A stretch of DNA of 64,000 bases from Lachnospiraceae bacterium (GCA_017478245.1 JAFVDW010000009.1:970-64969); one strand, 5' to 3'. Counted from the stretch's first letter, positions 10,373 through 54,316 are shown. Made by a program: numbers and translations. The notes: generated by a model not told the origin, from the letters alone.

Positions 10373-12163
10373 TCAATCCCATGTACGGTTATCGTCAAAG
10401 TTTATCTTGGGGAATCCACCATCGAAATCACCCTCTGGCATCTCAGGTCGCTCTCCATTGAATCCGTCCTCCTTCATTCCTTTACCGAAGCCTCTGCCTC
10501 TTCTGCCAAACCCATCTTCGTTCTCATCGAATTCAAATTTCTCATCGAACTCCATGTCACCGCCAAAGCCGGGTCTGCCGCCGAAGCCACCACCAAAACC
10601 GCCAAAACCGGTGCCCTCTCCGTAAAGAATCTCTGACATGGTGATTTCATTGCTCTCTGTTCCGATGTCCAATGTATAAGTCTCGCCCACCACGATATCC
10701 GGCGTACTTACCACTACGGAATTGTAATTTTTCTCGGGATTATAGCTCACCAACACATTGCCTGCACTGTCCTTTAACTCTATAGATGAACCTGCCTCCT
10801 GTACAGAATCGGTATTCATCAGGATGGAGCCTTGTGTGGAGGTGCTGCCCATATTCTGCTCCATGCCGCTGTAGCCTGCTGCCACCAGAATACCCCCGGT
10901 AATCCGGGCTTCACCTGCATAATCCAATGCCCCATTACCGCCATTGGTAGGACCGGAGACATACGTCTCACCACCTGTCACATAGAAATCTCCGTTGCTG
11001 TCCAGACCATCGCCATTCGCATTCACAGCAAGCTCCCCGCCGGAAATCAGGATATAAACGCCCTCTTCAGCCTCATCCATCATACCTCTGTCCAAGAAGG
11101 TTTCTGTACTGCTGCCGCTTGCAGCATTCAGACCATCATCGCTTGCTACAACACTTGTTTTGCCTCCTGCAATCTCGATCACCTTACCCTCGATACCCTC
11201 ATAGCTCTTGACAATATCAATGTTTCCACCGGTAATCACTACCTGCGTATCGGAATGAATCCCATCATCCCCTGCTGTAATGGCGATATTGCCGCCTGCA
11301 ATGTAAGTGAAGCCCTTGGTCTCATCGTCATCATTGCCGGAATGAATTCCATCCTCCGCACAGGTGATCTGAATGTCTCCACTGGCGATGCGTACACTAT
11401 CCTTACCTGCCAGACCATGATCTCCAGATGTAATCTCATAGGTACCGCTGGTGATTACCAAATCATCCTTAGAGACAATACCATGGCCATAATCCGCCTG
11501 CACGATCAATGTGCCCAGACCGTTTAAGGTCAAATCCTCTTTGGAAAAAATAGCTGCATCAATGTTGTTATCATCGATTGCCACGAATTCTCCGGTACTG
11601 GAAAGTGTATTCACTGTACCGGATGCGGTGGTGACAAATACCTTATCCGCCTGTTTGATATAAAGTGCTGCACTGGTGCTGTTGGTGATTGTCACACCAT
11701 TTAACACAATCTGAAGCTTATCAGCGTCATCCGCATCCACAATCACCATACCATCCTCCAAGGTCCCGGATAGCACATAAGTACCTTCATCCGTAATTGT
11801 CACTGTGGTTCCATCAATCTGCACGGAAGCATCCTCACAGGTTGCAGAAGTTCCGTTTAACGTAATCTGCACTGCTTCATTCTCATCATAACCCACTTCC
11901 TTGTCGCGGTCGGTGAACATATCGCTGACATCCAAGCTCTGCACGGCGCTGCTTGCGCCCTCCACTGTACTGTCACTATCGACGTTGCTGCTGCCACTTT
12001 GGATGCTGACATTTTCTACAGCCACATCTATGGTGCTATCTGTAGAGTCAATGACTCTTCCTGTCTGACCGCAGGCACTCATTACCATGGCTGCGGCACA
12101 CATTACTGCAAACACGGAATATTTTCTTCTGTTCCATCTATGATTTATATGCTTTCTACTCAT
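10373..12163 (-). CDS. Cthe_2159-type (DUF4353) beta-helix carbohydrate-binding lipoprotein
   Basis: Lipobox MSAC; repeated GxxxI...DDG(I/L)(H/N)S beta-helix rungs (DDGIHSD, DDGLNAA, GDGLDSNG); Gly/Phe-rich tail. Confidence 0.82.
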   Translation of the reverse strand: MSRKHINHRWNRRKYSVFAVMCAAAMVMSACGQTGRVIDSTDSTIDVAVENVSIQSGSSNVDSDSTVEGASSAVQSLDVSDMFTDRDKEVGYDENEAVQITLNGTSATCEDASVQIDGTTVTITDEGTYVLSGTLEDGMVIVDADDADKLQIVLNGVTITNSTSAALYIKQADKVFVTTASGTVNTLSSTGEFVAIDDNNIDAAIFSKEDLTLNGLGTLIVQADYGHGIVSKDDLVITSGTYEITSGDHGLAGKDSVRIASGDIQITCAEDGIHSGNDDDETKGFTYIAGGNIAITAGDDGIHSDTQVVITGGNIDIVKSYEGIEGKVIEIAGGKTSVVASDDGLNAASGSSTETFLDRGMMDEAEEGVYILISGGELAVNANGDGLDSNGDFYVTGGETYVSGPTNGGNGALDYAGEARITGGILVAAGYSGMEQNMGSTSTQGSILMNTDSVQEAGSSIELKDSAGNVLVSYNPEKNYNSVVVSTPDIVVGETYTLDIGTESNEITMSEILYGEGTGFGGFGGGFGGRPGFGGDMEFDEKFEFDENEDGFGRRGRGFGKGMKEDGFNGERPEMPEGDFDGGFPKINFDDNRTWD

Positions 12164-12209
12164 ATTCTTAACCCTTCCTTTCCGTAAAATAAACCTGCTT
12201 TTTCATACT

Positions 12210-12896
12210 CTATAGCTCTGCTGTGACGGTCTCCTGCTTGGACATGGCAATCTCCAGATTACCATTACGGCAACGAAGCTTATCAATGAAATCCTTTTCC
12301 TTGGACGCGTCCTTCAAGGTCACATGATAGGTAAGCTTGAACAGGCTGCCCATATTGGCAGTCTTGACACTGATTAACTCGTTACTGTCCGTGAACTCAT
12401 CCAACAGATCCTGAAATACATCTGTGTAATCCAGATCCTCCGGGATGGTGATACGCAGTACCTTTTTGTTTTCCTCTTCTTTGTTTCTTCCGAAATCCAT
12501 TACATTAAACAGTAACGTAATACCGCATACAATAATGGTGTAGAGAGCCGCATATCCCAGATAGCCCATTCCGGTAATCAGACCTGCTGCCATCGCCATG
12601 AAGATGGCTCCAATTTCCTTCGCTGTGCCGGGCAGAGAACGGAATCTCACCAGACCAAAGGCTCCTGCCACTGCCACGCCTGCTCCCACGTTGCCATTCA
12701 CCATCATGATTACCACACAGATTACTGCCGGAAGCATCGCCAGAGTCACCACAAAGCTCTGGGTGTATCTCGTCTTGTAACGATAAGTCAGCGCCATCGC
12801 CAGACCGATGACCAACGATACCGCGATACATAATACAAAATTACCTACTGCTAAATTACTGCTATCAAATACACCATTAAATAACTGATTCCACAT
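12210..12896 (-). CDS. DUF4956 family membrane protein
   Basis: SFVVTLAMLP, NGNVGAGVAVAGAFGLVRFRS, RCRNGNLEI. Confidence 0.85.
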   Translation of the reverse strand: MWNQLFNGVFDSSNLAVGNFVLCIAVSLVIGLAMALTYRYKTRYTQSFVVTLAMLPAVICVVIMMVNGNVGAGVAVAGAFGLVRFRSLPGTAKEIGAIFMAMAAGLITGMGYLGYAALYTIIVCGITLLFNVMDFGRNKEEENKKVLRITIPEDLDYTDVFQDLLDEFTDSNELISVKTANMGSLFKLTYHVTLKDASKEKDFIDKLRCRNGNLEIAMSKQETVTAEL

Positions 12897-13680
12897 AACT
12901 TACCTCTTTTCTGCGCTGCTTTTGATTTTTTATAGTTTGTGTCTGCAACGCTGACACATATCTGCTTGCCGGTATAAACAATGTCTTTTTTGCTGACATC
13001 ATCTGTGCATAGGCTGCTCCGTATTTGGAGAGAGAGGTCTGATAGATTTTCTCTGCCGACAGCACATCTACCAACCATTTCGGCATCGCTGCCGCCACCT
13101 TGATTTCCATCAGTGTGCATCCCGGCTCCAGTATGGGCTTGCCGTAAATCTCACTTTGAAGGCTTAAGTCCTCTTCGCGCCACAGGATGTTTTCATCGAA
13201 GGTAATCCGAAGCTCGTGATCCTCCTTGCCATAGAATGCTTCTCTCTCGTAGGAGAGGAAGACTGCCGGACGAAGTCCCTTGTAAAGCTGACGGAAATAA
13301 TCAATCTCTTCCGTGATCTGATTCTTTAGCTTCAGAGACTTACCCTGATTCAGATATCCTTCTGCATCTGCTTCCGGAACACTGACTCTACGTTTGTATA
13401 CAACGGAGTCATATTTTTTCTTCAGTTCTATGAACACGGTACTGTCTGCTGTAGCCTTAGTATAGCTGCGAACCCGAAGCTTTTCTTTGTAGATGGGCTT
13501 CTCCAGTGATCTTCGGATTAGCAGACTGTCCGGTGTATCGTAGTAGATATTGCGGATGGTGCTTCTACCGAATTCGTCCTGCTTCATGTAGGGCTCCATA
13601 GCCTCCATGATTTTGCGCTTCTGATCGGCGGTTAGCATATATTTTAATTCGTATCTTTGAAATACATTCTGAAATGCCAT
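12877..13680 (-). CDS. VTC (polyphosphate polymerase/TTM) domain protein
   Basis: FQRYELKY, NIYYDT, KEKLRVRSY, FIELKKK, YEREAF, LRITFD, LMEIK CYTH/TTM motifs. Confidence 0.85.
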   Translation of the reverse strand: MAFQNVFQRYELKYMLTADQKRKIMEAMEPYMKQDEFGRSTIRNIYYDTPDSLLIRRSLEKPIYKEKLRVRSYTKATADSTVFIELKKKYDSVVYKRRVSVPEADAEGYLNQGKSLKLKNQITEEIDYFRQLYKGLRPAVFLSYEREAFYGKEDHELRITFDENILWREEDLSLQSEIYGKPILEPGCTLMEIKVAAAMPKWLVDVLSAEKIYQTSLSKYGAAYAQMMSAKKTLFIPASRYVSALQTQTIKNQKQRRKEVSYVESVI

Positions 13681-13935: not shown

Positions 13936-15438
<1,503 letters not shown>

Positions 15439-15485
15439 TTAACTCCTTTCCGACAGCCGGATATGATATGAATTGTAGCGCATAC

Positions 15486-15514
15486 ATTATACCACATCCG
15501 AACTGACATTTCAA
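15486..15514 (-). promoter_or_regulatory. sigma-A promoter of tnpX
   Basis: TTGAAA-N17-TATAAT with extended -10 TG. Confidence 0.75.
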
Positions 15515-15547
15515 CGCTTTAACGTGCTGAACCGAAAATTCTTTCGA

Positions 15548-15814
15548 TCAGTTTTCGTTTAGTACAATGCGATGCACCTTTGTGAACGTATCCTCTGCGC
15601 CTTCTTTGTCAAAATGAGAACGTACAACATAGTAGGTGTCGCCGATCTTTTTTACAAAGTCCAGTTCCTTCGGTTTTCGCATTTCTGCAAACCATTTCAG
15701 ACGTTCTTCTTTTGGCTTTGCCGCAAGAGCGTCCAGTATATCATCAAATTCCTTGTAAATAGGATTTTCAATATCCTCGACCATGACTCCGTTTTCTTCC
15801 TTGTAAACCTTCAC
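15548..15814 (-). CDS. tnpW: Transposon-encoded TnpW family protein
   Basis: KIGDTYYVVRSHFDKEGAEDTFTKVHRIV resembles the TnpW signature; GTGA overlap with mob. Confidence 0.7.
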   Translation of the reverse strand: MKVYKEENGVMVEDIENPIYKEFDDILDALAAKPKEERLKWFAEMRKPKELDFVKKIGDTYYVVRSHFDKEGAEDTFTKVHRIVLNEN

Positions 15815-17034
15815 CTTTCCTTATTCCATCCTTTCCTTGATTTTTTCTGTCGATAAATCTCCTTTGCCTGTTTCAGCAGACCGTCGATCTGCTCGTTTCC
15901 GAATATCCGCCGCAGAAAAGCGTGATCCTTGTTCTGCTGACGCAGTTCGGAATTTACCCGGCGCAAATCCTTGTTTTCGGCTTTGAGGTCGGCAATCTCC
16001 GCTTTCAAACTGTCACCCTCACGCCATAGCTTTCCGTTGTTGTCAAGCACACGGTTGTATTCGTCCCGTAGCTTGAAATACCGCACAAGCATGGTCTTAA
16101 TGAGTTTCTTCAGCGCATTGATGACCGGATCGACGAATTTGTTCTTGTATGATTTCGCCGTCATAAGAGCAGAGGGATCGGGGAGGTTGTAGTTTTGTGA
16201 AGTGTCCAGTTCCTTTTGAAGTTCAGCCACGCTTTTGTCGCTGTTTTCAAAATCCGTTATCCGTTCGGCAAGCGATTTGACCGTATGCTCTGCGTCGGAT
16301 ATTTCCTTTTTCAGCCCGTCGGCTTTTTCGGTGAGTTCCGCAACCTCTTGCGTCCGCATTTTCTTTTCATAGTCATACACGGACAAATGTTTTTCGTGTG
16401 TGCCTTTCTGTTCCCATTCAAAGCCGTGCCGTTCCATCACCTCGGCAAGCGTTTCCTTTTCGGACAGTACCCATTGGCTCCATTCTGTTTCCCGCCGAGT
16501 GCCGCCCTTAAAGCCTTGCGCCGCCAGCGCCTGTTTCAGCGACACCCTTGTATCAAGCCCTCGCTTGCTCCCAGAGATGAACGGGACAAAATCAACGTGC
16601 AGATGAGGCGTTGCCTCGTCCATGTGCAGGTGTGCTGAGAATACACGCAGGTGCGGATTGCGTTCCTGAAACCCGTTGTAATACTCCGTCAATGCTTCCG
16701 CAGCCTGCTTGCCGATCTCCGTTGTTGCTCCGGTATCCTCACGGTTGCCGATTTGAATTATGATTTCGTGGAACAACTTTTCCTGTTTACCGGCACGGAT
16801 GTGTTCATAGTAATCGGGGATAATACGGTCCTTGCGCGTCTGCTTTTCGTTGTTCCGTTTCAAAGCGTCGTCGAACAATTCATGATACACGGTTTTGATT
16901 TTGTCATTGCAGAATTCCGTGTTCAGCGGGGTGCGTTCCGGATCGGTATTCTTTGCGTTGAATTTCCGACTGTTGTGGTTGGTCGAGCCTTTCCCGACCT
17001 CTACGCTGATCGTTCTTTTCAGTATAGTTATCAT
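15811..17034 (-). CDS. MOBV (Mob/Pre) relaxase, TnpZ-like
   Basis: NHNSRK motif I, HLHMDEATPHLH motif III, coiled-coil C-terminus; the true start may be a few codons downstream. Confidence 0.9.
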   Translation of the reverse strand: MITILKRTISVEVGKGSTNHNSRKFNAKNTDPERTPLNTEFCNDKIKTVYHELFDDALKRNNEKQTRKDRIIPDYYEHIRAGKQEKLFHEIIIQIGNREDTGATTEIGKQAAEALTEYYNGFQERNPHLRVFSAHLHMDEATPHLHVDFVPFISGSKRGLDTRVSLKQALAAQGFKGGTRRETEWSQWVLSEKETLAEVMERHGFEWEQKGTHEKHLSVYDYEKKMRTQEVAELTEKADGLKKEISDAEHTVKSLAERITDFENSDKSVAELQKELDTSQNYNLPDPSALMTAKSYKNKFVDPVINALKKLIKTMLVRYFKLRDEYNRVLDNNGKLWREGDSLKAEIADLKAENKDLRRVNSELRQQNKDHAFLRRIFGNEQIDGLLKQAKEIYRQKKSRKGWNKER

Positions 17035-17079
17035 CTCCTTTACAATATTTTTCCTTGCGCTGCGTCAGCAGCGGGTTTT

Positions 17080-17115
17080 GTTACTTTTTCCAAAAGTAAC
17101 GCAAAAGCACTTTTG
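17080..17115 (-). promoter_or_regulatory. Candidate oriT/RSA
   Basis: Inverted repeat GTTACTTTT/AAAAGTAAC with minus-strand TGCGTTAC, similar to MOBV nick regions, immediately upstream of mob. Confidence 0.4.
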
Positions 17116-17284
17116 ACAGCCTGCGGCCATCAAAAGCTCATTGCGCTCTCCGAGGGGGATTGCGGTATCTGCGAATACCGCTTGCCTGCCCGAGACTTTC
17201 GCTCCGGCGTCGCTTCGCTCGTTCATGTGGAGGTCATCGCAAAGTCATATCCCATTCGGACGGTCATTCAGTTGTATTCAGGCA

Positions 17285-17532
17285 TAAAAAAGCCATTACA
17301 TAGAAACACCAATAAGCGAGACAACTACCTCGCTTTGAAAAAAGTGTGTCTATGTAACGGCTTGTATTAGAAGTCGGGAACACTGTCTTGCATCCCGCCC
17401 GTGTTCCAAAGGCATTGGGATGTGTGCGGCAATTTCATTAGCCTGCCGCAGCATTGTCGGGCGTATAGCCCGCACTATGTTGACAACGTTATTCTATTTT
17501 TTGACTATCTCGCAGAAAGCGATAAGATCACA
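17285..17532 (-). ncRNA. Putative structured non-coding transcript or long leader
   Basis: Consensus promoter at 17539-17567, several hairpins, and a 20-bp stem (17290-17309/17344-17363) followed by a U6 tract on the minus strand. Confidence 0.45.
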
Positions 17533-17538
17533 ACTATC

Positions 17539-17567
17539 ATTATACAGAACAAATATTCGCTTGTCAA
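17539..17567 (-). promoter_or_regulatory. Perfect sigma-A promoter
   Basis: TTGACA-N17-TATAAT with extended -10 TG. Confidence 0.85.
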
Positions 17568-17737
17568 GAGGAAATTTCAAATTTCCCGAATATTTTTTCG
17601 GAAAGTCGGGAATAATAATATGTTTGCTCATAGAAAACGGACGCCGCAGCAGCGACGTCCTTCAAAAATCCTCTGGTGAACAGGTGCATGGAGATAGGAA
17701 TGTGTATTTAATAATGATTGTGTATGCGACACCTTAT

Positions 17738-19189
17738 TTACTCAACTTTAATACTACCGTCTTTTATCAATCTCCACAATAGCGCTGTCTTGACCGCTCC
17801 GCCAAAAAAAGAGTACACTGCAGATACAACTACTGTAATATACACATCCGGCACAAACGATTTTGCCACCCAAAGCGGTGTTTTGAAAATAACAGGAACA
17901 ATAAGCAAGATGAGAATCGGTGCTAAAAGGTGTGCGATACCAAGCCAGATGAAGGAGCGAACTGGTTTATTTCGCTGTATCCTTTTTCGGTATGATGGAA
18001 TCAAGCACAGTAAAATCACGGCAATAACAAACACAGCAAACATAATCAGGTCGATCTGAAGATGGGAAAGCCAATAAGCATTTTCGGATATTTCGTTCGG
18101 CTGCTCACCTAAAAGCATGAGTACAACACCCCATCCGAGGCTGTCCATCATTTCGTTCGTCACAAAATAATCATTGACATTGGCGGTTATCGCTATACCA
18201 ATACCGCTTTCGGGGATGATGAATATGCAGGAAGTGCCTGTTTCAACAAGACCACTGTGGCGCAGTACCGGTTCAGGCAACGGTTCTTTTATCTCAGCCC
18301 AACCGTATCCATACCAAAACGGCACGTCACCGTCAACAAAAACGGTATCACCATAAAATATTGTGTCAATGCTCTGTTGCGAAATTGTTCCCTCGCCGCC
18401 ATTTAGATACATCTGTAGATACCGTCCGAGATCATTTGCGGAAGATGATATATATCCTGCCGGAACTGTGATCCATGCATCATCTGACTCAGGATACTTG
18501 TGATCACGTTTCAGGTGTAAGCCCCAATAATTCGTATAACCGTCAATAAGACCGTTTTTAATACTTTTATCAAGCGTTGCAGCAGTATTAGAAAGAGAAA
18601 GCGGTTCAAATATGTTCTTCGTTATATAATCTTCATATGGCATACCGCTGACTTCTTCTATTATTTTGCCGAGCAGTGAATAGTTCACATTAGCGTAGTT
18701 ATGGACGCCTTGTTCGTTGATAATTTTATAATTGGCAAGTGTTTGATATTCTCCAAGTCCGCCTGTGTGGTTCAGCAGTTGGCTGACAGTAATCCTGTCG
18801 CCGTCAGTAGCATCCGGCAGGTATTTTGATATTGTATCATTCAGATCTATCATCCCCTGCTCAACAAGCTGCATGATGCAAACCGCAGTAAATGATTTGC
18901 TTACCGAGCCGAGAACAAATGGTGTGTCGCAGTTTTCTACTTGCCCGTAGTTTTTTGAAAACAACACCTGATCCTTATTCACTATGGTAACTGTCATCGC
19001 AGGAATATGGGCGTCTTGAGAGCAGGACAACAAATAATCATCTATTTTGTTATATTGTTCATTGCTTGACCCTGACTCTACTGCATATGTTTTACACTGC
19101 AATGCAAACATAATCATAACAAACAGCGTTATAACACACACTACTGCATTTATTTTGTTTTTTTTCGCCTTTTTAACGATACAGTTCAC
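17738..19189 (-). CDS. Serine hydrolase (class C beta-lactamase/PBP-like fold) with C-terminal TM helices
   Basis: GSVSKSFT SxxK, YANVNY YxN, LRHSGL; N-terminal signal peptide. Confidence 0.85.
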   Translation of the reverse strand: MNCIVKKAKKNKINAVVCVITLFVMIMFALQCKTYAVESGSSNEQYNKIDDYLLSCSQDAHIPAMTVTIVNKDQVLFSKNYGQVENCDTPFVLGSVSKSFTAVCIMQLVEQGMIDLNDTISKYLPDATDGDRITVSQLLNHTGGLGEYQTLANYKIINEQGVHNYANVNYSLLGKIIEEVSGMPYEDYITKNIFEPLSLSNTAATLDKSIKNGLIDGYTNYWGLHLKRDHKYPESDDAWITVPAGYISSSANDLGRYLQMYLNGGEGTISQQSIDTIFYGDTVFVDGDVPFWYGYGWAEIKEPLPEPVLRHSGLVETGTSCIFIIPESGIGIAITANVNDYFVTNEMMDSLGWGVVLMLLGEQPNEISENAYWLSHLQIDLIMFAVFVIAVILLCLIPSYRKRIQRNKPVRSFIWLGIAHLLAPILILLIVPVIFKTPLWVAKSFVPDVYITVVVSAVYSFFGGAVKTALLWRLIKDGSIKVE

Positions 19190-23576: not shown

Positions 23577-23830
23577 ACCGCTCTCCCTCTTAATCAAAAT
23601 GACTGTTTTCTTTCATTATGAATCAAATTTCATGAATATGTCAATAGCACTTGCCAACTCAAACTGCTCAGATCAGCTATGTGGAATATTTTTTAATGCA
23701 CAGAAACACAAAATATACTATAATAATTTTATAGTCAAATACCCCGCGGCAGGCTACAGGGCATACCAAAGCTTGTACTTAGTTTGTTCGCATTGCTTAC
23801 GGGAATAAAAATATGCAAGGAGACCTATTT

Positions 23831-24715
23831 ATGAAAATTTTAAAGTATGGTAAGGCTATCTGTTATTCGGGCTATCGGGAGGGACAGAGTCCCAAGACAG
23901 CAATCCCCTCCAAGGAGCAGATCGCAGAGGATCTGGAGATTTTGGTGAAGGATGGTTATCAATACATCCGTATGTACGATCCCAACGACCACGCCAGAAG
24001 AGTACTGGAGACCATTCGCGAGAAACAGCTTCCGATCAAATGTCTAATAGGTGTAGATTCTGATGCGGAGGTAAACAATCCGGGCTGTCCCTGGATTGAT
24101 CACAATATCCCCGAAGAGGTACTTGCCCAGAATAAGGTGCGCAATGACGGTGAAGTGGAAAAACTGATTGAGATGGCAAAGGAGTTTGACGAGGAAATCA
24201 TTGCGGTATCCATCGGCAATGAGAACACACCTTCCTGGGGTGCCCATATGGTTCCGGTAGAGCGCCTAATTCGTCACGTCAAGAGACTGCGGGAAGCCTT
24301 GGACAAGCCCATCACCTTCTGTGAAGGCGCTTTAGACTGGCCTGCCATCGTAGAATTGGGGAATCTGCTTGACTTTATCAGTGTTCACAGCTATCCTTAT
24401 CACTATGGCAGCGAATTAGCCGACGCAGTTGCTGTCAACAAGAAAAATCTGGCAGATGTGCAAGCATTGTTCCCGGATAAACAGGTTATTTTTACGGAGC
24501 TGGGATGGAGCACCAATGATGATTTTTCAGAAGAGCCCAAACGCTCCTCGCGAGAAAATCAGAAAACATACTTTGACGAACTGCTTCCCTGGTTGGAGGA
24601 GGAGCAGATCATTGCTTTCTTATTTGAAGCCTTCGATGAACCCTGGAAAGGCGATTCCCCCGATAAATCCGAGTGTAACTGGGGACTGTATGATGTACAT
24701 CGTCAAAAAAAATAG
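23831..24715 (+). CDS. GH17-like beta-1,3-glucanase/transglucosylase, no signal peptide
   Basis: ICYSGYR, AVSIGNE (acid/base), FTELGWST (nucleophile), FEAFDEPWK, ECNWGLY. Confidence 0.8.
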   Translation: MKILKYGKAICYSGYREGQSPKTAIPSKEQIAEDLEILVKDGYQYIRMYDPNDHARRVLETIREKQLPIKCLIGVDSDAEVNNPGCPWIDHNIPEEVLAQNKVRNDGEVEKLIEMAKEFDEEIIAVSIGNENTPSWGAHMVPVERLIRHVKRLREALDKPITFCEGALDWPAIVELGNLLDFISVHSYPYHYGSELADAVAVNKKNLADVQALFPDKQVIFTELGWSTNDDFSEEPKRSSRENQKTYFDELLPWLEEEQIIAFLFEAFDEPWKGDSPDKSECNWGLYDVHRQKK

Positions 24716-24720
24716 ATACA

Positions 24721-24759
24721 AACTGGCTAATTCAGATACCAAATCTGAATTAGCCAGTT
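24721..24759. terminator. Hairpin between convergent GH17 and GH55-like genes
   Basis: Perfect 17-bp stem AACTGGCTAATTCAGAT/ATCTGAATTAGCCAGTT. Confidence 0.8.
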
Positions 24760-24774
24760 CCATTTTTCCTTCAT

Positions 24775-27753
24775 TTATCTGCTACTGCTGCTGGAGGGTA
24801 TCCTGTAAACATGTTCCCTTCCCATAAGATAAGCATCCTCCCCGTTGGACACGATGGAATACGCATCTCTAGGCACAGGGCGTCTCTCCACAAGCGCTCC
24901 ATCCCGGAATCCATACAGACAGTCATCCACTGCCCAGATGATACCCTCTGCATCCCTCATGACGCCATACTGTCCCTTGTTGCCTACTTTCTGTCCATGA
25001 GCAAAATTGCCTCCCTCGGTCACCTCGTAACAATAAACACTCCTTAAGGCATCGTCTGTAATCAGAAATTCTTCCCCCTCTACCGCTGCATCTAAGCGCA
25101 GCGTCCGTGCCAAATCAATGGTTGCCTGCAGGGCAGTCTTTCCGTCCGGTGCCATATAGTACGCCTCGACCTTCTGCACTGCCTGCACCTGAAACACCCC
25201 CGGATAATCCATCTGTGCAGGGCGGAAAATCACTTCCGGTCTGCACGCCGATGCAGATATGGCAGATAACTCCACCATGGTATCGTAGGGATTCTCCAGC
25301 GATATCGCATACACCTTCTCGCTTCTCTTATAAAACCATGAGAAGAAAGGATGGAAATTGCGAAAATCATGGGACTGAAAGGGCTGTCCGGGAACCGTCT
25401 TCTTCAGCTCCGAATAATCTGCTGCCACCAACAGATTCCCCGCCGTATCCACCGCCAATGCGGAGGGCATAAAGTGACAGTCAAAGAATGGCAATACAAT
25501 ATCTTGCTCTTTCACATACTGATAAATCCGCTTCTGGGATTTGTCGCACCAGTAAAGGTTACCCTTACTGTCAAATGCTGCTCCCTGCGCAAAATCAAAA
25601 CCGGATGCTAATACCTCATAGCCTTCTATATATTCCGGTTTTTTCGCAGAGACACAGCCACCTCCTATGGTCAGCTTAGCGTATTCCGGCGACTTGGCAT
25701 AGAAGCCACTGGTAGCATCCTCTGCTGTCACCGTAAACAAATAGTGCATCTGCGCCTTATTCTGCACGTTCAGGAAGGTTATATCTCTGCTGTTCCACAC
25801 ACGAATACCTGTTTCATAGCTGCGATCCACCGCTATCACACGGAACAGAAAATAATTAGCAAACGTAATATGCTCGCAGGAAATCAATTCCATGGGCAGA
25901 CAATTTAGTCCTTCCGCCTTCTCTTCTTCCGTCTGTATAGCATAAAACACCCAGTTTGCCACATTTACAAGCTTCATCTCACTGCGCACATGATGCTCCA
26001 GAGAGATGGCATACATACGTCCTTTTGTACGGGTATTGGTAATAGTGATTCCCGTCTCCGCGTAGGGGGAAGCACTCCACACATCCTTGAACACGCCACC
26101 GCCGCCATCGGTAATCCACAGACTGGCATACTGAAAATCCCAGATACGATCCGGGTCATAATCTGCGGTACGGCTGGGATTATACAGGTATCCATAAGCA
26201 TTTCTGCCATCACGAAGCATATTGCCATGCCCCCCCAGGAACTTCACATCGTTCATGTAAGAGGTCTCCCCAGCCATCCATTTCACGCCTACCGCTCGCG
26301 GATTCTTACCGGCGGTCTCAATGCCGATACCATTGATGCAGACAAAACCACCTTTTGCCGTCTCCACCACTGCCTTGGGGGTGCCGAATCCAAAGAATGC
26401 CGGCGTGTCATCCGTAAGCGCGATCTGAGTAGTGATGGGACTAAAGCCATACAGGCTCACACCCTCCGGTAGCACAATCGTATCGGATACCCGATAGATA
26501 CCCTGGGGAAAATACAACGCTTTCTGTTCTCCTGTGATGCGCATCTTCTCTGACACATCCAAGAATGCCTGCTTCAGTGCCATGGTATCGTCTGTCTCGC
26601 CGTCACCCACTGCACCGTATGCCTTCACAGACACCCACTGACTCATAGGCAATAGCGCCGGAATGTCACTTGCTGCCATCTCTCCCGGTCTGTCAAGCTC
26701 CCGCACAGACAAAATCTCCTGCATAGAAGCGTCCTGTTCCTCACTGTACACATACCCTCTGGTGTACTCCTCCACCTCATAATAAGCTTCCTCTCTGCGC
26801 ACATACTCGTCCACATCCGCGCGATGTATGAGTGTAGGCACATTGGCACAGCGAAGCCTTTTGATATTGGTCTGCTGAATCACATTGTCCGATTGATAAC
26901 TTGTGATTGCAGCGTCGGTGATATTCTCAAAAACACAATCCTCCAGATACAGCTTCTCCCAACTGCCTGTCAAATAGATATCAAAAGCATGCTTTGTATT
27001 GGCAATCCGCAGCCGAAAGGCTGTAAAGCCTGTGGTGGCACTTAAGACAGCCGCTTCCTTTTGTCCATCAAACACACAGTCCAACAGTGCAAAGGGCCAA
27101 CCCGGAGAACACATCCTACAGACAATACCATATTGTCCACCTTCAAAGGTCAAATCCTCCATCTCATTGCCCACATCAAAGATGCCTGCCAATCCATCCC
27201 CCAACTCAAAATGACAATGACTGATAAAACCATGCTGCGCAAAATGCGCCCGAATACAAATAGCTCCCGGATTGTTATTTTCTATGCGAAAATCAATGTT
27301 ACTGATGGCATCATAAAAAGTACCCGCATTGGCATCCATGGGCTCATCCGCATCCATATTCCGATCTCCAATGAACCAGAACAGATACTTTGCCCCAGGA
27401 TAGCCATCCATGTACAGATTTCGAATCTCATCCCCCCTGATTGTATTACGGTCAATTCTCCGCTCAAAGCCTTTGGTACCCGCAGGCAGCACAAATACCG
27501 GTCTTGTTGCACCGTATCCAATCAGACGCACAGAAGGCGGAATCAGCACAGTATTCTTCAGACGATACTCTCCCTCCGGAATGTAGAGAATTCCATATTT
27601 CTGCTCCTCCACAAGGTGTTTCAAAGCATCCTGCAGCACCTTGCTCACATCCTCTGCTGCATTCTTTAATTCCGGGAACTCCTCCTCTGTGAAGAAAATT
27701 CCCATTTCATCCTGAAATCGATCCTGATAGACCGATGTTTTGCCATGCCACAT
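24775..27753 (-). CDS. GH55-like double beta-helix glycoside hydrolase fused to an SMP-30/gluconolactonase-like beta-propeller
   Basis: Two Pectate_lyase_3-type repeats (LYIPEGEYRL; VKAYGAVGDGETDDT..LYFPQGIYRV); SLEHH...IQTE matches the remembered GH55 catalytic-region pattern; C-terminal GAAFDSKGNLYWCD propeller blades. Confidence 0.7.
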   Translation of the reverse strand: MWHGKTSVYQDRFQDEMGIFFTEEEFPELKNAAEDVSKVLQDALKHLVEEQKYGILYIPEGEYRLKNTVLIPPSVRLIGYGATRPVFVLPAGTKGFERRIDRNTIRGDEIRNLYMDGYPGAKYLFWFIGDRNMDADEPMDANAGTFYDAISNIDFRIENNNPGAICIRAHFAQHGFISHCHFELGDGLAGIFDVGNEMEDLTFEGGQYGIVCRMCSPGWPFALLDCVFDGQKEAAVLSATTGFTAFRLRIANTKHAFDIYLTGSWEKLYLEDCVFENITDAAITSYQSDNVIQQTNIKRLRCANVPTLIHRADVDEYVRREEAYYEVEEYTRGYVYSEEQDASMQEILSVRELDRPGEMAASDIPALLPMSQWVSVKAYGAVGDGETDDTMALKQAFLDVSEKMRITGEQKALYFPQGIYRVSDTIVLPEGVSLYGFSPITTQIALTDDTPAFFGFGTPKAVVETAKGGFVCINGIGIETAGKNPRAVGVKWMAGETSYMNDVKFLGGHGNMLRDGRNAYGYLYNPSRTADYDPDRIWDFQYASLWITDGGGGVFKDVWSASPYAETGITITNTRTKGRMYAISLEHHVRSEMKLVNVANWVFYAIQTEEEKAEGLNCLPMELISCEHITFANYFLFRVIAVDRSYETGIRVWNSRDITFLNVQNKAQMHYLFTVTAEDATSGFYAKSPEYAKLTIGGGCVSAKKPEYIEGYEVLASGFDFAQGAAFDSKGNLYWCDKSQKRIYQYVKEQDIVLPFFDCHFMPSALAVDTAGNLLVAADYSELKKTVPGQPFQSHDFRNFHPFFSWFYKRSEKVYAISLENPYDTMVELSAISASACRPEVIFRPAQMDYPGVFQVQAVQKVEAYYMAPDGKTALQATIDLARTLRLDAAVEGEEFLITDDALRSVYCYEVTEGGNFAHGQKVGNKGQYGVMRDAEGIIWAVDDCLYGFRDGALVERRPVPRDAYSIVSNGEDAYLMGREHVYRIPSSSSSR

Positions 27754-27806
27754 AACCTCGCTCCACTCCTTTTACCAGTTCTATTATCAGTTTCATAAAC
27801 ACCTTA

Positions 27807-29807
27807 TTAAAAGTCCACTGAGGGCTGTAGTACATTATGTATAATCTCCAACAGCGTTTGGGACAGATATGGCTTGATTAAATAATCCTTTGTGCCCAAC
27901 TCTGCCGCTTTTTTCACAATATCAATTTCTTTCTCAGATGTGGCAAAAATAATCGGGGTATTCCCATAATCCTGGATGGCTTTTATCACACGATAGCCAT
28001 CCATACCTGTAGCGTCCATATCCACCAGTACCAAATCAATGTCCTGCTCTAAAAGAATGTGCTTACAAGCCTCCACGGTCTTAGCCTTGTGCACCACATA
28101 ATGGGACTGAGTGGCAATAATTTCTTCTGCTGTATTCAAATCCTCGTCATTGTCGTCGACCAGCAATATGTTCTTTTGCTCTGAACGGAATTGCCGCAAC
28201 TGATACTCCTGGTCCTCATCAATCATCTGAATCATAATATCCGCAATCCTTGGATCGAACTGCTTACCCATACCCGCCAATATCTCACTGCGCACTGCAT
28301 TTTGCGGCAATGCACTGCGGTAGCTTCGGTTGGAGGTCATGGCATCATAGCTGTCCGCAACGCAGACAATCCGGGCTGCAAGCGGAATATTCTCCCCTGT
28401 CAATCCATCCGGATAGCCCTTTCCATCATAGCGTTCATGATGCCATCTGGCTACACTTGCCACATCAAAGGTATTAGATACATTTTTCAAAATGTAATAT
28501 CCCGACACTGTGTGCAGCTTAATATTTTCATACTCATCTGCCGTAAGCTTTCCATCTTTATTGATGATAAAATCGGGCACACGAATTTTCCCCACATCGT
28601 GTAGTAAGCCCGCATAGTAAATTTCCCGCTGCTCTTCCTCGCTCATTCCCATTCTTCTGGCAATCTCTCTGGCATAGTCTGCTACTCTCATGGAATGACC
28701 TTTTGTATATCGATCCTTTGCCTCCACCGCACTGCTCAAGGCATTGATCACCTGGAAATAGAACTGCTCCATCTCCTCCTGCATCCTGCGCACTTCGGTG
28801 GTCTTTTCATCCACTTCCTCCACCAAAGTCTGGGCATAATAGTACGAAACAGTCACGTCGTTCAACACAAAGACTTGTCCATGGGGAAGGGCGGAATGAT
28901 GCACTTCCTGCCCACTGATCGTGTATACTTTATTCTTATAAAATTTATATTTTCCGGCTCCCGCATAATGAACTACATCTGCTACCGCCTCATACGCTTC
29001 ATTTGTCATAAGCTGCGGATAAATGTCTTTCGCAATACGATTGGCATAGAGTAACTGATCGTTCTCTCCTAGTATAACCACGCCAGTACCAATCTCATCC
29101 AGCACCTGATCCTTTGCCACGCTCAAAGTATCCACTAAATTATAACGAATGGTTATTCGCATCAGGAAAATAACAGATACACAGTTGAAAAGTGCCGTGA
29201 TATCATATCCCCTTGTAACACCTGTCAAAAACGCCGTAAAACCTACCATCTGCATCACTATGACTGCGAGGAAATAGGGGATTTGTTTACGCCGGATCGT
29301 ATCTGCCGTTTTGCAATAGCCATAAGTACACATTCCCACACCGGCGAGCAGACAAAGAAATAAATAAGCGGAATACAAATAGTATACAGGACCATGCCCC
29401 AACAGAAGATGCGGAAATTGTCCCTCATAGGTAAACCCAATACTACTGTAATATAAAGTGTGATGCTCGCAGGTTCCTACCATAATCAATGTAGCTGTAG
29501 CAATAAAAAACATGACTGCTTTCAACCATTTGGGAAATTTTACCCTCGTCAAATGACCCATGACAAGCATCATGGTATATAACAAATACACCTTTCCCAA
29601 ATATGCAATTTTCACACCTGTAAGGGCTACCTGTTGGGTTTTGGCATCCAATTCAATCAAATAACCATATGCACTGATACCTACAAAAACCGTGTACAGC
29701 AAGATGAGCGCCTGATGTTTCATAGAGATACGCCTATACAGAATCATAACCTGTATGAATACCAGTGCCAGACCTATGATCTGAATACTAAAATATACCG
29801 CATGCAA
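27807..29807 (-). CDS. 7TM sensor - HD-GYP phosphodiesterase - C-terminal receiver
   Basis: About 7 N-terminal TM helices; HSMRV, LLHDVGK, HHERYDGKGYP, VADSYDAM; REC domain LLVDD...LVDM...KP. Confidence 0.9.
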   Translation of the reverse strand: MHAVYFSIQIIGLALVFIQVMILYRRISMKHQALILLYTVFVGISAYGYLIELDAKTQQVALTGVKIAYLGKVYLLYTMMLVMGHLTRVKFPKWLKAVMFFIATATLIMVGTCEHHTLYYSSIGFTYEGQFPHLLLGHGPVYYLYSAYLFLCLLAGVGMCTYGYCKTADTIRRKQIPYFLAVIVMQMVGFTAFLTGVTRGYDITALFNCVSVIFLMRITIRYNLVDTLSVAKDQVLDEIGTGVVILGENDQLLYANRIAKDIYPQLMTNEAYEAVADVVHYAGAGKYKFYKNKVYTISGQEVHHSALPHGQVFVLNDVTVSYYYAQTLVEEVDEKTTEVRRMQEEMEQFYFQVINALSSAVEAKDRYTKGHSMRVADYAREIARRMGMSEEEQREIYYAGLLHDVGKIRVPDFIINKDGKLTADEYENIKLHTVSGYYILKNVSNTFDVASVARWHHERYDGKGYPDGLTGENIPLAARIVCVADSYDAMTSNRSYRSALPQNAVRSEILAGMGKQFDPRIADIMIQMIDEDQEYQLRQFRSEQKNILLVDDNDEDLNTAEEIIATQSHYVVHKAKTVEACKHILLEQDIDLVLVDMDATGMDGYRVIKAIQDYGNTPIIFATSEKEIDIVKKAAELGTKDYLIKPYLSQTLLEIIHNVLQPSVDF

Positions 29808-38273: not shown

Positions 38274-39170
38274 CTAGCTGCGGAAATCAAAGCTCTGTCC
38301 CACTATCCTCTCCGCATCTGTCCGCACTGAGGACACAGAAGTTTCATAAGCCGCATCACTAACCTTTCGTAATAGTGCATGCAGGGAAGAGGAACGGTAT
38401 TCTGTATAATTTAGTCTCTCGTTCTTCTCGGCACGCTTCTTTTCTTCTGCTTTCTCCTTTGCTTTCTCATCAGCTTTTTTCTCTGCCTTTTTCTCTGCCC
38501 GTTTTTCAGCAGTCTTTTTGTCGGCAGCTTTTCGGGCTTCCTTCTTCTCGGCTGCTTTCCGCTCAATGCGCTCCTTCTGTGCCTTATTCGCCTCTTCCGT
38601 CACTGCGAAAAAGCTCTTGTTACCGCCTGCGTCCACTGACATTCCGAAATTCTTCACTCCAGCGCCGGTACTGGAAAGCTGATTTTTCATGGCGGCAAGT
38701 TGAGGCTGAGCAGATGCAATGATCCCCTCATATTTCTTGCGGAAGGATTCATCCGTAGCCATGCGCTCCAGCTTTTCCTCATCGATGAGTACCACCATGC
38801 GGTTGCTGTTGCCATACTGAGAGGCATTCTGATGCACCTGGGATTTCATGTCATTGCTCACCAACATGAAATCCAGGTTGTGGAACTTGGACTTAAGCTT
38901 GTCATAATATTCCGCTGCCTTGTCGCTGAGCTGCACATCCCCAATGGTCTTGCCGTATGTCTCATGTGTTGTGGGAATCATGGAACTTGTTACAGATTTT
39001 GCCGACCACGCAGAAGATTTGATCTCCGGCGAAGTGGCTTTGGATCTCGCGGTGTTCTCGCTCTGCTCTGTATTCACAGATGAAGTGCGTTCCATCCGCT
39101 TCGTGTCAGACTGCTGCCACAGGGCAGCACTTTGCTGATAGGCATTAGCGCCATAAACTGTACTACTCAT
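38274..39170 (-). CDS. DUF6033-like protein, charged/helical, no signal peptide
   Basis: YGKTIG..LS..AA.YY..LK.KF, MVVLIDEEKLERMATDESFRKKYEGII; K/E/A-rich tail; ATG 39170 behind GGAGG. Confidence 0.7.
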   Translation of the reverse strand: MSSTVYGANAYQQSAALWQQSDTKRMERTSSVNTEQSENTARSKATSPEIKSSAWSAKSVTSSMIPTTHETYGKTIGDVQLSDKAAEYYDKLKSKFHNLDFMLVSNDMKSQVHQNASQYGNSNRMVVLIDEEKLERMATDESFRKKYEGIIASAQPQLAAMKNQLSSTGAGVKNFGMSVDAGGNKSFFAVTEEANKAQKERIERKAAEKKEARKAADKKTAEKRAEKKAEKKADEKAKEKAEEKKRAEKNERLNYTEYRSSSLHALLRKVSDAAYETSVSSVRTDAERIVGQSFDFRS

Positions 39171-39284
39171 ACACATCTCCTCCTTGATTGTGATAAATAA
39201 TAGCAAGAGAACAAAATCCGTCCCACGAAACAAAATCCGTTTTGTCCCATTGCAGATTCTTTTCGGCTAGTTCTCCTATTCTTT

Positions 39285-39311
39285 ATATCGGCGTTTTCTC
39301 CTGAATCTTTA
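39285..39311 (-). promoter_or_regulatory. sigma-28 (SigD/FliA) promoter
   Basis: TAAA-N15-GCCGATAT exact consensus, overlapping the cls stop codon and pointing into the DUF6033-like gene. Confidence 0.8.
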
Positions 39312-40880
39312 CATAAGCGGCGCCACCAGCTTCATAACGCTTCCTGCCACCTTATAAAATACTTTTTCCTGCTTGATGGTCTCCGGCGTGACCTCCCTGC
39401 ACTTTGAAAGGGTATCCTGGAAATCCGCCTCCATATCACTGATACAGTCTGTCCTATAAAGATAGGTAGCACATTCAAAATGATGATAGAGGCTTCTGTA
39501 ATCTAAGTTGATAGTGCCCACCACGCCCTTGCAATCATCGCTCACAAACACTTTGGCATGTACGAATCCGGGAGTATATTCATACAGCTTGATTCCCGCC
39601 CTTATCAAGGTTTTATAATGGGATTTCGCCAGGGCATAAGCCATCTTTTTATCCGGAATACCCGGCAAAATAATCTTTACATCCACGCCCCGCTCTGCCG
39701 CGTAGGTCAAAGCGCGCTCCAGTTCTCCGTCCAGAATCAGGTAAGGAGTCATGATATGCACATAGTCTGTGGCACGATAGAGGATGTCCATGTATACATT
39801 TTCCCCCACCTTGTCCCCATCTAGTGGACAATCCGCATAAGGCATCACATAACCGCCGGGGTGCTCCACAGAGACAGGCGGCACATGAACGTAACGGTCG
39901 TAGTCAGGCTTGGGCTCACTGATATCCCACATCTGAAGGAACATCAGCGTAAAACTCTTTGCCGCATCACCCCGCACCATCACCGCAGTATCCTTCCAAT
40001 GTCCAAAACGCTCCACGCGATTGATGTATTCATCTGCCATATTGACACCGCCGTTAAACGCCACCTTGCCATCAATCACCAGAATCTTGCGATGGTCACG
40101 ATAGTTGTAGTTGGTAGAAAGAAAAGGAGTGATGGGCGTAAAGGTTTTACATTTTATACCTATCTGCTGCATCCGTCTGGGATAATCATGGGGGAGCAAT
40201 GAGATTTCGCACATCCCGTCGTACATTACCCGAACCTCCACCCCTTGCTTTGCCTTGCGGGCAAGGATTTCCAACACCTTTCCCCACATATAGCCTTCTT
40301 CGACGATGAAGTATTCCATAAAAATATATGCTTCTGCCTTTTCCAGTTCCTCCAACAGAGCCTCAAATTTTTTCTCACCCAGGGGAAAATAGATGACTTC
40401 TGTGTTATCAAATATAGGATAGCAGCCGGAGCGGTTGATGTACCGGCAGAGGTCATCCGTTCCGCTACCATCCTTTTCCAGTTGTTTTAAGACCTCCTCC
40501 GACTGGGTAATCTCATTTCTACTCTCGTCGATGAGCTTCTCAATGCGTCTCGCCACCGCTCTGTGACCAATATCCGTCCGTGTAAAGACCAAAAAGATTG
40601 CACCGGGCACAGGAGCAATGGTCATGATAATCATCCAAGTGAGCTTTCCGGACGGGTCCATGTCACAATTATAAAGATAAATCACCATTGTGACTGTGAA
40701 AATCGTAATCACCACACGAAAGTAGGGGATGTATTCGTTGAACCAGTTGTACACTGATACCAGAATCACCACCTGCAGCGCCATCAATGCCAGAATTACC
40801 AGCAGTCTGCTGAAAATGATATGAAGGATTCCTTTGCGTTTGGGCTTAGCCAGCCTCATAATTTCGTTCGTATCACTCAT
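39309..40880 (-). CDS. cls: Cardiolipin synthase
   Basis: Two HKD motifs (HRKILVID, HAKVFVSD), N-terminal TMs/PLDc_N. Confidence 0.93.
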   Translation of the reverse strand: MSDTNEIMRLAKPKRKGILHIIFSRLLVILALMALQVVILVSVYNWFNEYIPYFRVVITIFTVTMVIYLYNCDMDPSGKLTWMIIMTIAPVPGAIFLVFTRTDIGHRAVARRIEKLIDESRNEITQSEEVLKQLEKDGSGTDDLCRYINRSGCYPIFDNTEVIYFPLGEKKFEALLEELEKAEAYIFMEYFIVEEGYMWGKVLEILARKAKQGVEVRVMYDGMCEISLLPHDYPRRMQQIGIKCKTFTPITPFLSTNYNYRDHRKILVIDGKVAFNGGVNMADEYINRVERFGHWKDTAVMVRGDAAKSFTLMFLQMWDISEPKPDYDRYVHVPPVSVEHPGGYVMPYADCPLDGDKVGENVYMDILYRATDYVHIMTPYLILDGELERALTYAAERGVDVKIILPGIPDKKMAYALAKSHYKTLIRAGIKLYEYTPGFVHAKVFVSDDCKGVVGTINLDYRSLYHHFECATYLYRTDCISDMEADFQDTLSKCREVTPETIKQEKVFYKVAGSVMKLVAPLM

Positions 40881-52489: not shown

Positions 52490-52524
52490 ACGTCTCACAC
52501 CTCATGTCTTTCAGCCACATATCG

Positions 52525-54045: not shown

Positions 54046-54316
54046 CGTAACCCTCCTCGTTTATACATTATAAGTGATACCTTCTATTAATAAAATTACC
54101 ATAAAAAAACAGGTATTACAATACAAGGCGTTTGGCAAAAAAGCCGTGCTATCTGGTAATAAATCTTCTCATGTTATTTGACATAAAATTTTTGTGAATT
54201 ATCCTTTACACTTTCTTTATACTTTCTTGAGTACTTATTTACACTTAAAAAATATAATCATGTTCAGAACCATTCACTTGGTTTGGAACAGTTACTAAAA
54301 AGGAGTATGTCGGAAA

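Follow-up and report, generated by a model that had tools for sequence, protein, structure and literature searches.

A 64,000-nucleotide stretch of DNA from a Lachnospiraceae bacterium (GCA_017478245.1, JAFVDW010000009.1:970-64969), hereafter the window, carries on its minus strand a gene for a 992-residue protein, and the question raised by this locus is what an enzyme made of a double beta-helix and a C-terminal beta-propeller does in the cell. Relatives of this protein bear public names such as "glycosyl hydrolase family 28-related protein," "gluconolaconase" and "sugar lactone lactonase YvrE," just as a first-pass annotation, made from the sequence, had predicted when it expected mislabeling as GH28-related or as gluconolactonase. 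That annotation proposed instead a cytoplasmic exo-beta-1,3-glucanase resembling glycoside hydrolase family 55 (GH55), with a propeller that could bind substrate or remove gluconolactone. Nearly everything known about GH55 comes from secreted laminarinases of fungi and Streptomyces. We propose that the protein is a cytoplasmic hydrolase of a large bacterial clade, distantly related to GH55, which would act by inverting exo-cleavage on beta-1,3-gluco-oligosaccharides, its propeller being an accessory part and not a lactonase, and we give this reading as a whole a probability of about 0.55. Taken separately, the assignment as a GH55-type glycosidase is very probable, and a beta-1,3-gluco-oligosaccharide is the substrate that we somewhat favor; we infer both the exo mode and the inversion.

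Homology of the Double Beta-Helix to GH55

The resemblance to GH55 is solid: it is homology, goes beyond fold and is not due to chance. In the Pfam scan, the pectate-lyase-3 type family PF12708 matched two stretches of the protein (E 5e-30), the second covering residues 373-511; in the NCBIfam scan, no model matched it. An AlphaFold2 model built on 28 homologues (mean predicted local distance difference test score, pLDDT, 87.7; predicted template modeling score, pTM, 0.90) displays two long beta-helical stretches followed, from about residue 712, by a regular all-beta domain. When this model was compared with the Protein Data Bank (PDB) by Foldseek, the GH55 structures 5m5z, 3eqn and 8jhh ranked first (E 3e-21 to 7e-18, TM-score on the target 0.57-0.69), and Phanerochaete chrysosporium Lam55A (3eqn), against which the first-pass annotation had suggested checking such a model, is thus among the top-ranked matches. 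The same relationship was found by sequence. The single sequence, searched against the PDB with phmmer, reached 5m5z at E 3.5e-14 and 3eqn at E 5e-13, a 28-sequence profile reached GH55 structures at E 4e-26, and a 34-sequence profile, in which propeller-less relatives were included, reached them at 1.6e-39 and 2.8e-38, with a single alignment that spans the N-domain and the catalytic region (profile positions 124-618). The GH55-like nature of the double beta-helix is therefore borne out by the two PF12708 stretches, by the sequence and profile matches and by the Foldseek ranking.

The bacterial GH55 enzyme SacteLam55A gave no match in the sequence or profile searches and was found by Foldseek alone (E 1.9e-5). 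A profile made only of stand-alone forms, i.e., relatives that lack the propeller, reached GH55 at 7.8e-36, no closer than the 34-sequence profile; by sequence, these forms do not look like an obvious bridge to GH55.

Catalytic Residues

Residue equivalences were read from HMMER sequence alignments, and conservation was counted in 84 full-length relatives (36-75% identity). In GH55, the general acid is Glu-502 of SacteLam55A or Glu-614 of MnLam55A, oriented by Tyr-505 or Tyr-617, respectively; the proton relay involves Thr-149 or Glu-140, Ser-198/203, Gln-174/172 and Glu-480/591, and subsite -1 is formed by Glu-140, Trp-552, Asp-557, Glu-591 as well as His-592 (PMC10637969). The chain numbering of 8jhh corresponds to the mature numbering of that study. 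In the phmmer alignment to 8jhh, E586-H587 of our protein (in the motif SLEHHVRSE, residues 584-592) fell on Glu-591/His-592, Q607-T-E609 (in IQTEEE, residues 606-611) on Q612-S-E614, K612 on Tyr-617, W546 on Trp-554 and D549 on Asp-557. When profiles were aligned to 3eqn and 5m5z, S-E-H-H fell on S-E-H-H and Q-T-E on Q-T-E, and Q173 was paired with the relay Gln and F146 with Phe-143. In 3eqn, the general-acid Glu aligned to E609 has chain position 639, which we take to be Glu-633 of PcLam55A, assuming this Pc numbering and the six-residue offset seen at Gln-176 and Ser-204.

The glutamate of the QTE motif, taken in the first-pass annotation as the GH55 catalytic acid and put forward there as the residue on whose alignment the proposal would stand or fall, does align with this acid in all three structures. 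The parallel drawn between SEH and the fungal enzymes also holds, as E586-H587 is, by alignment, the counterpart of the Glu-His pair that belongs to the -1 subsite and the proton relay. Moreover, F146, Q173, W546, E586, H587 and E609 are invariant in 84/84 relatives, and all 84 share the two motifs unchanged.

The family also has invariant residues of its own, namely D140, T145, R168, H170, N196, D539, Q541, S544, H588, R590, E592, E610, E611, E614 and R638. In the region where GH55 reads GGFLG in the profile alignments, it carries the motif N196-E197-M-E199, conserved at N196 in 84/84 relatives, at E197 in 80/84 and at E199 in 82/84. These two glutamates lie 3 and 5 residues past the position of the relay serine, which is lost here (see below), and the hydrophobic M198 alternates with them on the strand. 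We suspect that E197 or E199 may have taken over the activation of water.

The Propeller and the Clade That Carries It

The approximately 290 C-terminal residues, described in the first-pass annotation as SMP-30-like blades, are predicted to form a six-bladed propeller which is of lactonase type by fold. Foldseek indeed matched them to the six-bladed propellers 7ris (E 1e-7), 3e5z, 3dr2, 4gn7, 2dso, Pizza and Brat-NHL. At the sequence level, the initial blades are similar to NHL repeats (Pizza, PknD), with E-values down to 4e-15 when a profile is used, and the last blades display a weak likeness to Drp35, 3e5z and the xylonolactonase 7plb (XylC). The Pfam scan of the protein found nothing significant in the last 290 residues, and no PF08450 at E <= 1; this family matches 15/28 relatives (best E 1.6e-14). 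Identity to distant relatives is 26% in the propeller versus 43% in the catalytic part, and the propeller evolves much faster.

An exhaustive HMMER search of 1.84 billion representatives returned 245 proteins at E <= 1e-30, many of which are proteins of about 650 residues that match residues 5-690 only. Such stand-alone relatives (e.g., P0151, P0168 and P0184) are 29-36% identical across the whole double beta-helix and keep Q173, E586, H587, H588, E592, Q607, E609 and R638; they lack not only the propeller but also W538, D539, Q541, R590, E611 and E614. Alignment A2 allowed 16 propeller-bearing rows to be compared with 18 stand-alone rows. W538, D539 and Q541, conserved in 84/84, 81/84 and 83/84 of the full-length relatives, respectively, were found in 15/16, 14/16 and 13/16 propeller-bearing rows versus 0/18, 0/18 and 2/18 stand-alone rows, and R590 in 15/16 versus 1/18. 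For the whole set formed by W538, D539, Q541, R590, E611, E614 and H170, the counts are about 13-15/16 versus 0-3/18.

These clade-specific residues are no more than a few positions away from the catalytic E586 and E609, and the pTM of 0.90 indicates that the domains have a fixed arrangement in the model. These two features suggest a propeller packed close to or at the catalytic cleft, and co-evolution of both parts; we infer the direction of this contact. The propeller is probably an accessory module that caps or extends the substrate-binding cleft. A further step is conceivable, since clade-only residues (W538, D539, Q541, R590, E611 and E614) flank the catalytic glutamates: the clade could be a distinct GH55 subfamily or sister family, in which the propeller belongs to the active-site architecture and E197 or E199 replaces the Ser relay as base. 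This last view is possible but doubtful; if true, the specificity or mode of action would be unlike that of every characterized GH55.

Cellular Location and Gene Context

The N-terminus has no hydrophobic leader. Among relatives, a leader was scored in 1/43 from Bacillota, where the open reading frame (ORF) concerned is over-extended, and in 40/41 from Bacteroidota and Ignavibacteriota, where it precedes a conserved S-V-Y start. Judging from these N-termini, the enzyme is cytoplasmic in Gram-positives and exported in Bacteroidota, and the absence of a signal peptide noted in the first-pass annotation thus extends to the Bacillota relatives. Such a compartment split is the usual pattern for an enzyme acting on oligosaccharides past the first transport step.

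All three neighboring glycosidases in the window are beta-1,3-glucan types, two of them GH16 and one GH17 (Table 1). The 300-residue GH17-type protein also matched the beta-1,3-glucanosyltransferase 4wtp (E 9e-6), with its GNE and TELGW motifs aligned, and gave a weak Pfam GH17 match. In close relatives (loci L020, L023 and L027), the orthologue comes directly after genes for a GH16 enzyme, a kinase and the ATPase, two permeases and binding protein of an ATP-binding cassette (ABC) importer. This importer was found in the genome studied here on another contig (C67), its binding protein being 58% identical to that of the relatives (E 2e-201), its permeases 71-72% and its ATPase 76%. It adjoins there a protein of 1679 residues, whose catalytic core belongs to PF11790, the Pfam family of GH128 beta-1,3-glucanases, and which also has three discoidin domains. 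This stretch (G000:C67, L087:3222-13150) is bordered by genes for an AraC-type response regulator and for a histidine kinase.

The gene located directly upstream of the GH55-like gene encodes a protein with a seven-transmembrane (7TM) sensor, an HD-GYP domain and a receiver, assigned by NCBIfam to a c-di-GMP phosphodiesterase response regulator family. It is placed, apparently as part of the same transcription unit, with the GH16 genes on one side and the GH55-like gene on the other; the terminator search found none between it and the latter. A link to HD-GYP signaling was considered and rejected, as such genes are not among the recurrent neighbors in 81 loci; they may therefore provide local regulation at most. 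An HD-GYP gene is found directly 3' of the orthologue in L004, L005 and L018, and two genes off in Halanaerobacter (L002).

A pattern scan of one genome per species identified 370 genomes with a relative, from which 80 loci were taken; neighbors within 8 kb were clustered and cluster representatives were annotated. The carriers are gut and anaerobic Bacillota, Bacteroidota and Ignavibacteriota, and no neighbor is universal among the loci. The recurrent glycosidase neighbors belong to GH16 (7 loci), GH3 and GH2 (5 each), GH9 and GH5 (4 each) and GH30 (3). In Oscillospiraceae, Paenibacillus and other Bacillota, the gene typically comes last, after genes for a Cache histidine kinase, an AraC-type response regulator, a DUF3502 solute-binding protein and two permeases. 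Five Clostridia loci (L038, L048, L049, L050 and L061) carry, 3' of the gene, a FucIso_C-like isomerase, a class II ketose-bisphosphate aldolase and a PfkB kinase, which hints at a non-glucose sugar pathway tied to some family members; two GH5 genes are also present in L048 and L061.

In Bacteroidota, the gene stands beside SusC/SusD, often in two copies (L044, L063, L066, L073, L080 and L082). In these loci and in L045, the two copies encoding a GH55-like protein with propeller are often a few kb apart. Commonly found between or beside the Bacteroidota copies are a GH2_C-like TIM-barrel protein of 430-440 residues or a protein of about 650 residues without Pfam match (e.g., L085:7944-9896), the latter adjacent in 7 loci. 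Some Bacteroidota loci (L045, L077 and L083) contain ROK kinase, Glucosamine_iso-family, MFS and DUF5009 genes. Polysaccharide utilization loci (PULs) with GH55 alone were reported always to have two gene copies (PMC6499787), and a Bacteroides uniformis PUL with GH55 and GH9 was induced on Ganoderma glucan (PMC11733155). The tandem Bacteroidota copies match the former pattern, and L045, L069 and L076 match the latter. This suggests that tools based on CAZy already label the Bacteroidota members as GH55. The context as a whole fits the use of beta-glucans and fungal walls, with room for varied specificity.

Proposed Function and Alternatives

From a mechanistic point of view, the active site would most likely occupy, as in GH55, the cleft that separates both beta-helix domains, with E609 acting as general acid and with E586/H587 and Q173 positioning the water molecule. 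Inverting exo-cleavage would then take glucose off the non-reducing end of beta-1,3-gluco-oligosaccharides. At the level of the cell, laminarin-type glucan would be cut outside by the two surface GH16 laminarinases and by the GH128-type enzyme, whose gene lies elsewhere, the ABC importer would take the fragments in, and the GH55-like enzyme, together with the neighboring leaderless GH17 enzyme, would finish them to glucose.

Several observations weigh against this proposal. The relay serine (Ser-203 in MnLam55A, Ser-198 in SacteLam55A) corresponds, by sequence alignment alone, to V194, a position occupied by V in 74/84 relatives and otherwise by L, A or I. At the position of the acid-orienting tyrosine, three residues past the acid, the protein has K612, and Tyr is not among the six commonest residues of that column, which account for 79/84 sequences (S24, K23, V14, G12, A4 and R2). 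The position of Asp-557 in the -1 subsite is D549 here and N40/D20/E13 across the 84 relatives, and the equivalent of Trp-552 is W538 in the phmmer alignment to 8jhh and S544 in the profile alignments to 3eqn and 5m5z. The GH55 identity put forward in the first-pass annotation thus stands for the scaffold, the acid, the Glu-His pair and the relay Gln, and does not stand for the relay Ser and the acid-orienting Tyr, so that this is not a textbook GH55. As to context, no sugar transporter was found within the 64-kb window, and the neighbors found elsewhere (GH9, GH5, GH2, the isomerase/aldolase/kinase set, ROK with NagB-like and DUF5009 genes) vary across lineages, so the specificity of the clade may be non-uniform, or not directed to beta-1,3 linkages. 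Finally, our search of the literature revealed no characterized member of the bacterial GH55-like propeller clade.

Some of these same observations feed an alternative in which the GH55-type machinery is kept and the substrate is another one. The protein would then be an exo- or endo-glycosidase for a different beta-glycan, such as beta-1,6- or mixed-linkage glucan, cello- or xylogluco-oligosaccharides or a hexosamine-containing fungal wall glycan, with a -1/+1 site which its numerous invariant acidic residues would make different from that of the laminarinases. N196, E197, E199, E610, E611, E614, R590 and H170 are indeed invariant in the family and absent from GH55, in addition to the missing Ser and Tyr and the variable -1 Asp, and the GH9, GH5, GH2 and GH30 neighbors point in the same direction, as do the isomerase, class II aldolase and PfkB set of five loci and the ROK kinase, Glucosamine_iso, MFS and DUF5009 genes of two to three. 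We nevertheless consider this alternative rather unlikely. The three glycosidases next to the gene in the window are of beta-1,3-glucan types, the close Lachnospiraceae orthologues come after GH16 and an ABC importer whose copy in the same genome adjoins a GH128-type gene, and GH55 residues are conserved both at -1 (E586/H587) and among the aromatics (F146 and W546). The ROK, Glucosamine_iso-family and MFS genes fit plain glucose catabolism equally well. For this reason, and because they occur in few loci, a hexosamine substrate, which had been considered in view of the invariant Glu residues and of the genes in L045, L077 and L083, was demoted and is kept only as part of this broader alternative.

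Two other explanations, each very improbable in our opinion, concern the reaction itself. The enzyme might be bifunctional, with the propeller as an active lactonase clearing gluconolactone, a glucosidase inhibitor, as the first-pass annotation had envisaged. The best structural matches of the propeller do include gluconolactonases, SMP30, Drp35 and xylonolactonase, PF08450 is found in just over half of the relatives scanned, and weak sequence matches link it to Drp35, 3e5z and 7plb. However, the protein itself is below significance for PF08450, the non-catalytic NHL/Pizza blades match its sequence better, and the propeller evolves faster than the catalytic part. When the profile is aligned to 7plb, the P-D of Y-P-D196-G, in which D196 of the PDG motif is a lactonase metal ligand, belongs to an insertion absent from the family, which reads (E/Q)-(Y/F)-G. 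The position analogous, by motif only, to the Glu of the blade-1 EGP motif, which we assume to be a metal ligand too, is Q723 here and Q30/D20/E18/T10 in the 84 relatives. The few invariant polar residues of the propeller (D769, D870, T873 and R883) do not form a lactonase pattern, and its fold, lactonase- or NHL-like, is predicted to be without a lactonase site. As these metal ligands are not conserved, the role in gluconolactone removal is unsupported. Furthermore, GH55 enzymes are inverting hydrolases that release glucose and not gluconolactone (PMC10637969), so an enzyme of this type would produce no lactone that needs removal. The remaining explanation is that the inverting GH55 scaffold carries a phosphorylase or a transglycosylase, in which phosphate or a sugar acceptor would replace the water activated by the Ser relay. 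The cytoplasmic location and the place at the end of sugar-importer operons, usual for beta-glucan phosphorylases, are consistent with it, and so are the loss of the relay Ser and the invariant basic residues near the active-site motifs (R590, H588, R168, H170 and R638). It is ranked low because the same invariant residues are present in 40 exported Bacteroidota orthologues, and phosphorolysis is not expected in the periplasm; besides, searches of Pfam, NCBIfam and PDB sequences revealed no likeness to known phosphorylase families, and both the general acid and the Glu-His pair are of the hydrolase kind. Hydrolysis of beta-1,3-gluco-oligosaccharides by a GH55-related enzyme is thus the reading that we retain.

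Gene Organization and Other Features of the Window

The positions of the gene, its domains and motifs and the neighboring genes are given in Table 1. The GH55-like gene is present as a single copy in the 2.49-Mb genome (95% complete, 119 contigs), and the nearest relatives of its product belong to Lachnospiraceae metagenome-assembled genomes, e.g., of Acetatifactor and Roseburia. The hairpin just downstream of the gene has a tail in which T occupies 5/8 of the bases 3' of the stem.

Table 1. Position of the GH55-like gene, its parts and its neighbors, counted from the first nucleotide of the window.
Feature	Position	Strand	Basis
GH17-type beta-1,3-glucanase/transglycosylase, 300 aa (amino acids), leaderless, convergent	23813..24715	+	PDB 6fcg (GH17), E 1e-16
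Bidirectional hairpin terminator, common to the GH55-like and the convergent GH17 genes	24720..24760	.	18-bp stem and T-rich tail
Whole gene, GH55-like double beta-helix with C-terminal propeller, 992 aa	24775..27753	-	Single ORF fills the span exactly
Six-bladed NHL/SMP30-type beta-propeller, residues 701-992, probably non-catalytic	24778..25653	-	Foldseek and sequence matches
Linker and C-terminal beta-helix domain, residues ~356-700, opening with GDGxTDDT	25654..26688	-	Second PF12708 stretch; aligns to GH55 C-domain
Q607-T-E609-E610-E611, E609 equivalent to the general acid	25921..25935	-	QTE on QSE/QTE of 8jhh, 3eqn and 5m5z
S584-L-E586-H587-H588-V-R590-S-E592, E586-H587 equivalent to the Glu-His pair (MnLam55A Glu-591/His-592)	25978..26004	-	Aligned residue-wise to 8jhh, 3eqn and 5m5z
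W538-D539-F-Q541, motif of the propeller clade only	26131..26142	-	Conservation in relatives and in A2
N-terminal right-handed beta-helix domain, residues ~1-355	26689..27753	-	First PF12708/Beta_helix stretch; aligns to N-domain of 3eqn/5m5z; strand pattern of the model
N196-E197-M-E199, family-specific acidic motif, a few residues past the lost relay Ser	27157..27168	-	
A172-Q173-H174, Q173 equivalent to the relay Gln (MnLam55A Gln-172/SacteLam55A Gln-174)	27232..27240	-	Profile "vAqh" on "VSQA" of 3eqn
Shine-Dalgarno sequence AAAGGAG, 12 nt 5' of ATG	27766..27772	-	
7TM sensor, HD-GYP and receiver protein, 53 nt upstream	27807..29807	-	PF16927, PF13487, PF00072
GH16 laminarinase-type enzyme with Big_2, 1188 aa	29946..33512	-	PF00722; laminarinases 3azx (1.6e-47), 4dfs and 2vy0
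Cell-surface GH16 enzyme with Big_2, FIVAR and SLH anchor domains, 1433 aa	33864..38165	-	

Directly upstream of the gene for the SLH-anchored GH16 enzyme, 38274-40880 (minus strand) encodes a DUF6033 protein and a two-domain PLD protein (cardiolipin-synthase-like). At 50951-55609, a GH43 protein with CBM6 and an FGGY sugar kinase are encoded on the minus strand, adjoining an erythromycin-esterase-family protein on the plus strand. On the other side of the locus, a large serine recombinase (Resolvase, Recombinase and DUF4368), a Mob_Pre relaxase and a PF00144 beta-lactamase-fold protein stand together at 13936-19189 (minus strand), in what looks like a small integrated mobilizable element about 5 kb from the glucan locus. 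A cluster of Cthe_2159 carbohydrate-binding-domain, DUF4956 and VTC-domain proteins is located at 10373-13680 (minus strand).

Significance and Comparison With Known Systems

What is new here is the combination of the GH55 scaffold and acid with an altered water-activating set, an obligate degenerate propeller and a cytoplasmic location. With the GH55-type identity of a clade present in about 370 species genomes, the last step of beta-glucan use, in which glucose is released, is filled in for many genomes of microbiomes. It also offers a test case for the rebuilding of an inverting glycosidase without an obvious base, and for what a propeller adds to a beta-helix enzyme. This is worth one focused biochemical and structural study, and implies no change of paradigm.

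Residues 701-992 resemble in size and fold the six-bladed lactonases RPA3624 (7RIS), XC5397 (3DR2), SMP30 (4GN7), Drp35 (2DSO) and XylC (7PLB). In contrast with these, the propeller is without the metal-ligand Asp, the presumed Glu is not conserved, and NHL repeats (PknD, Pizza) are closer in sequence to its blades. The Streptomyces sp. SirexAA-E enzyme SacteLam55A (4PEY and related structures) shares the two-beta-helix fold of our protein but is a secreted enzyme without a propeller; the accepted mechanism, with Glu-502 as acid and a proton relay of Thr, Ser, Gln and Glu, comes from it (PMC10637969).

The comparison with the fungal enzymes is the closest in terms of motifs. The exo-beta-1,3-glucosidases PcLam55A (3EQN/3EQO) and CtLam55 (5M5Z) and the endo-acting MnLam55A (8JHH) differ from the 992-residue protein in that they are secreted, whereas the latter is cytoplasmic and has 290 additional C-terminal residues forming the propeller. 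Identity is only 12-16% in the Foldseek alignments, the relay Ser is a Val, no Tyr is found three residues past the acid, and the invariant acidic residues E197, E199, E610, E611 and E614 are added. Both nevertheless have in common tandem right-handed beta-helices, each domain opening with a GDGxTDDT motif, S-E-H(H) and Q-T/S-E motifs with a spacing of 23 residues and a residue-by-residue match, the relay Gln, and the Phe and one Trp of the aromatic block.

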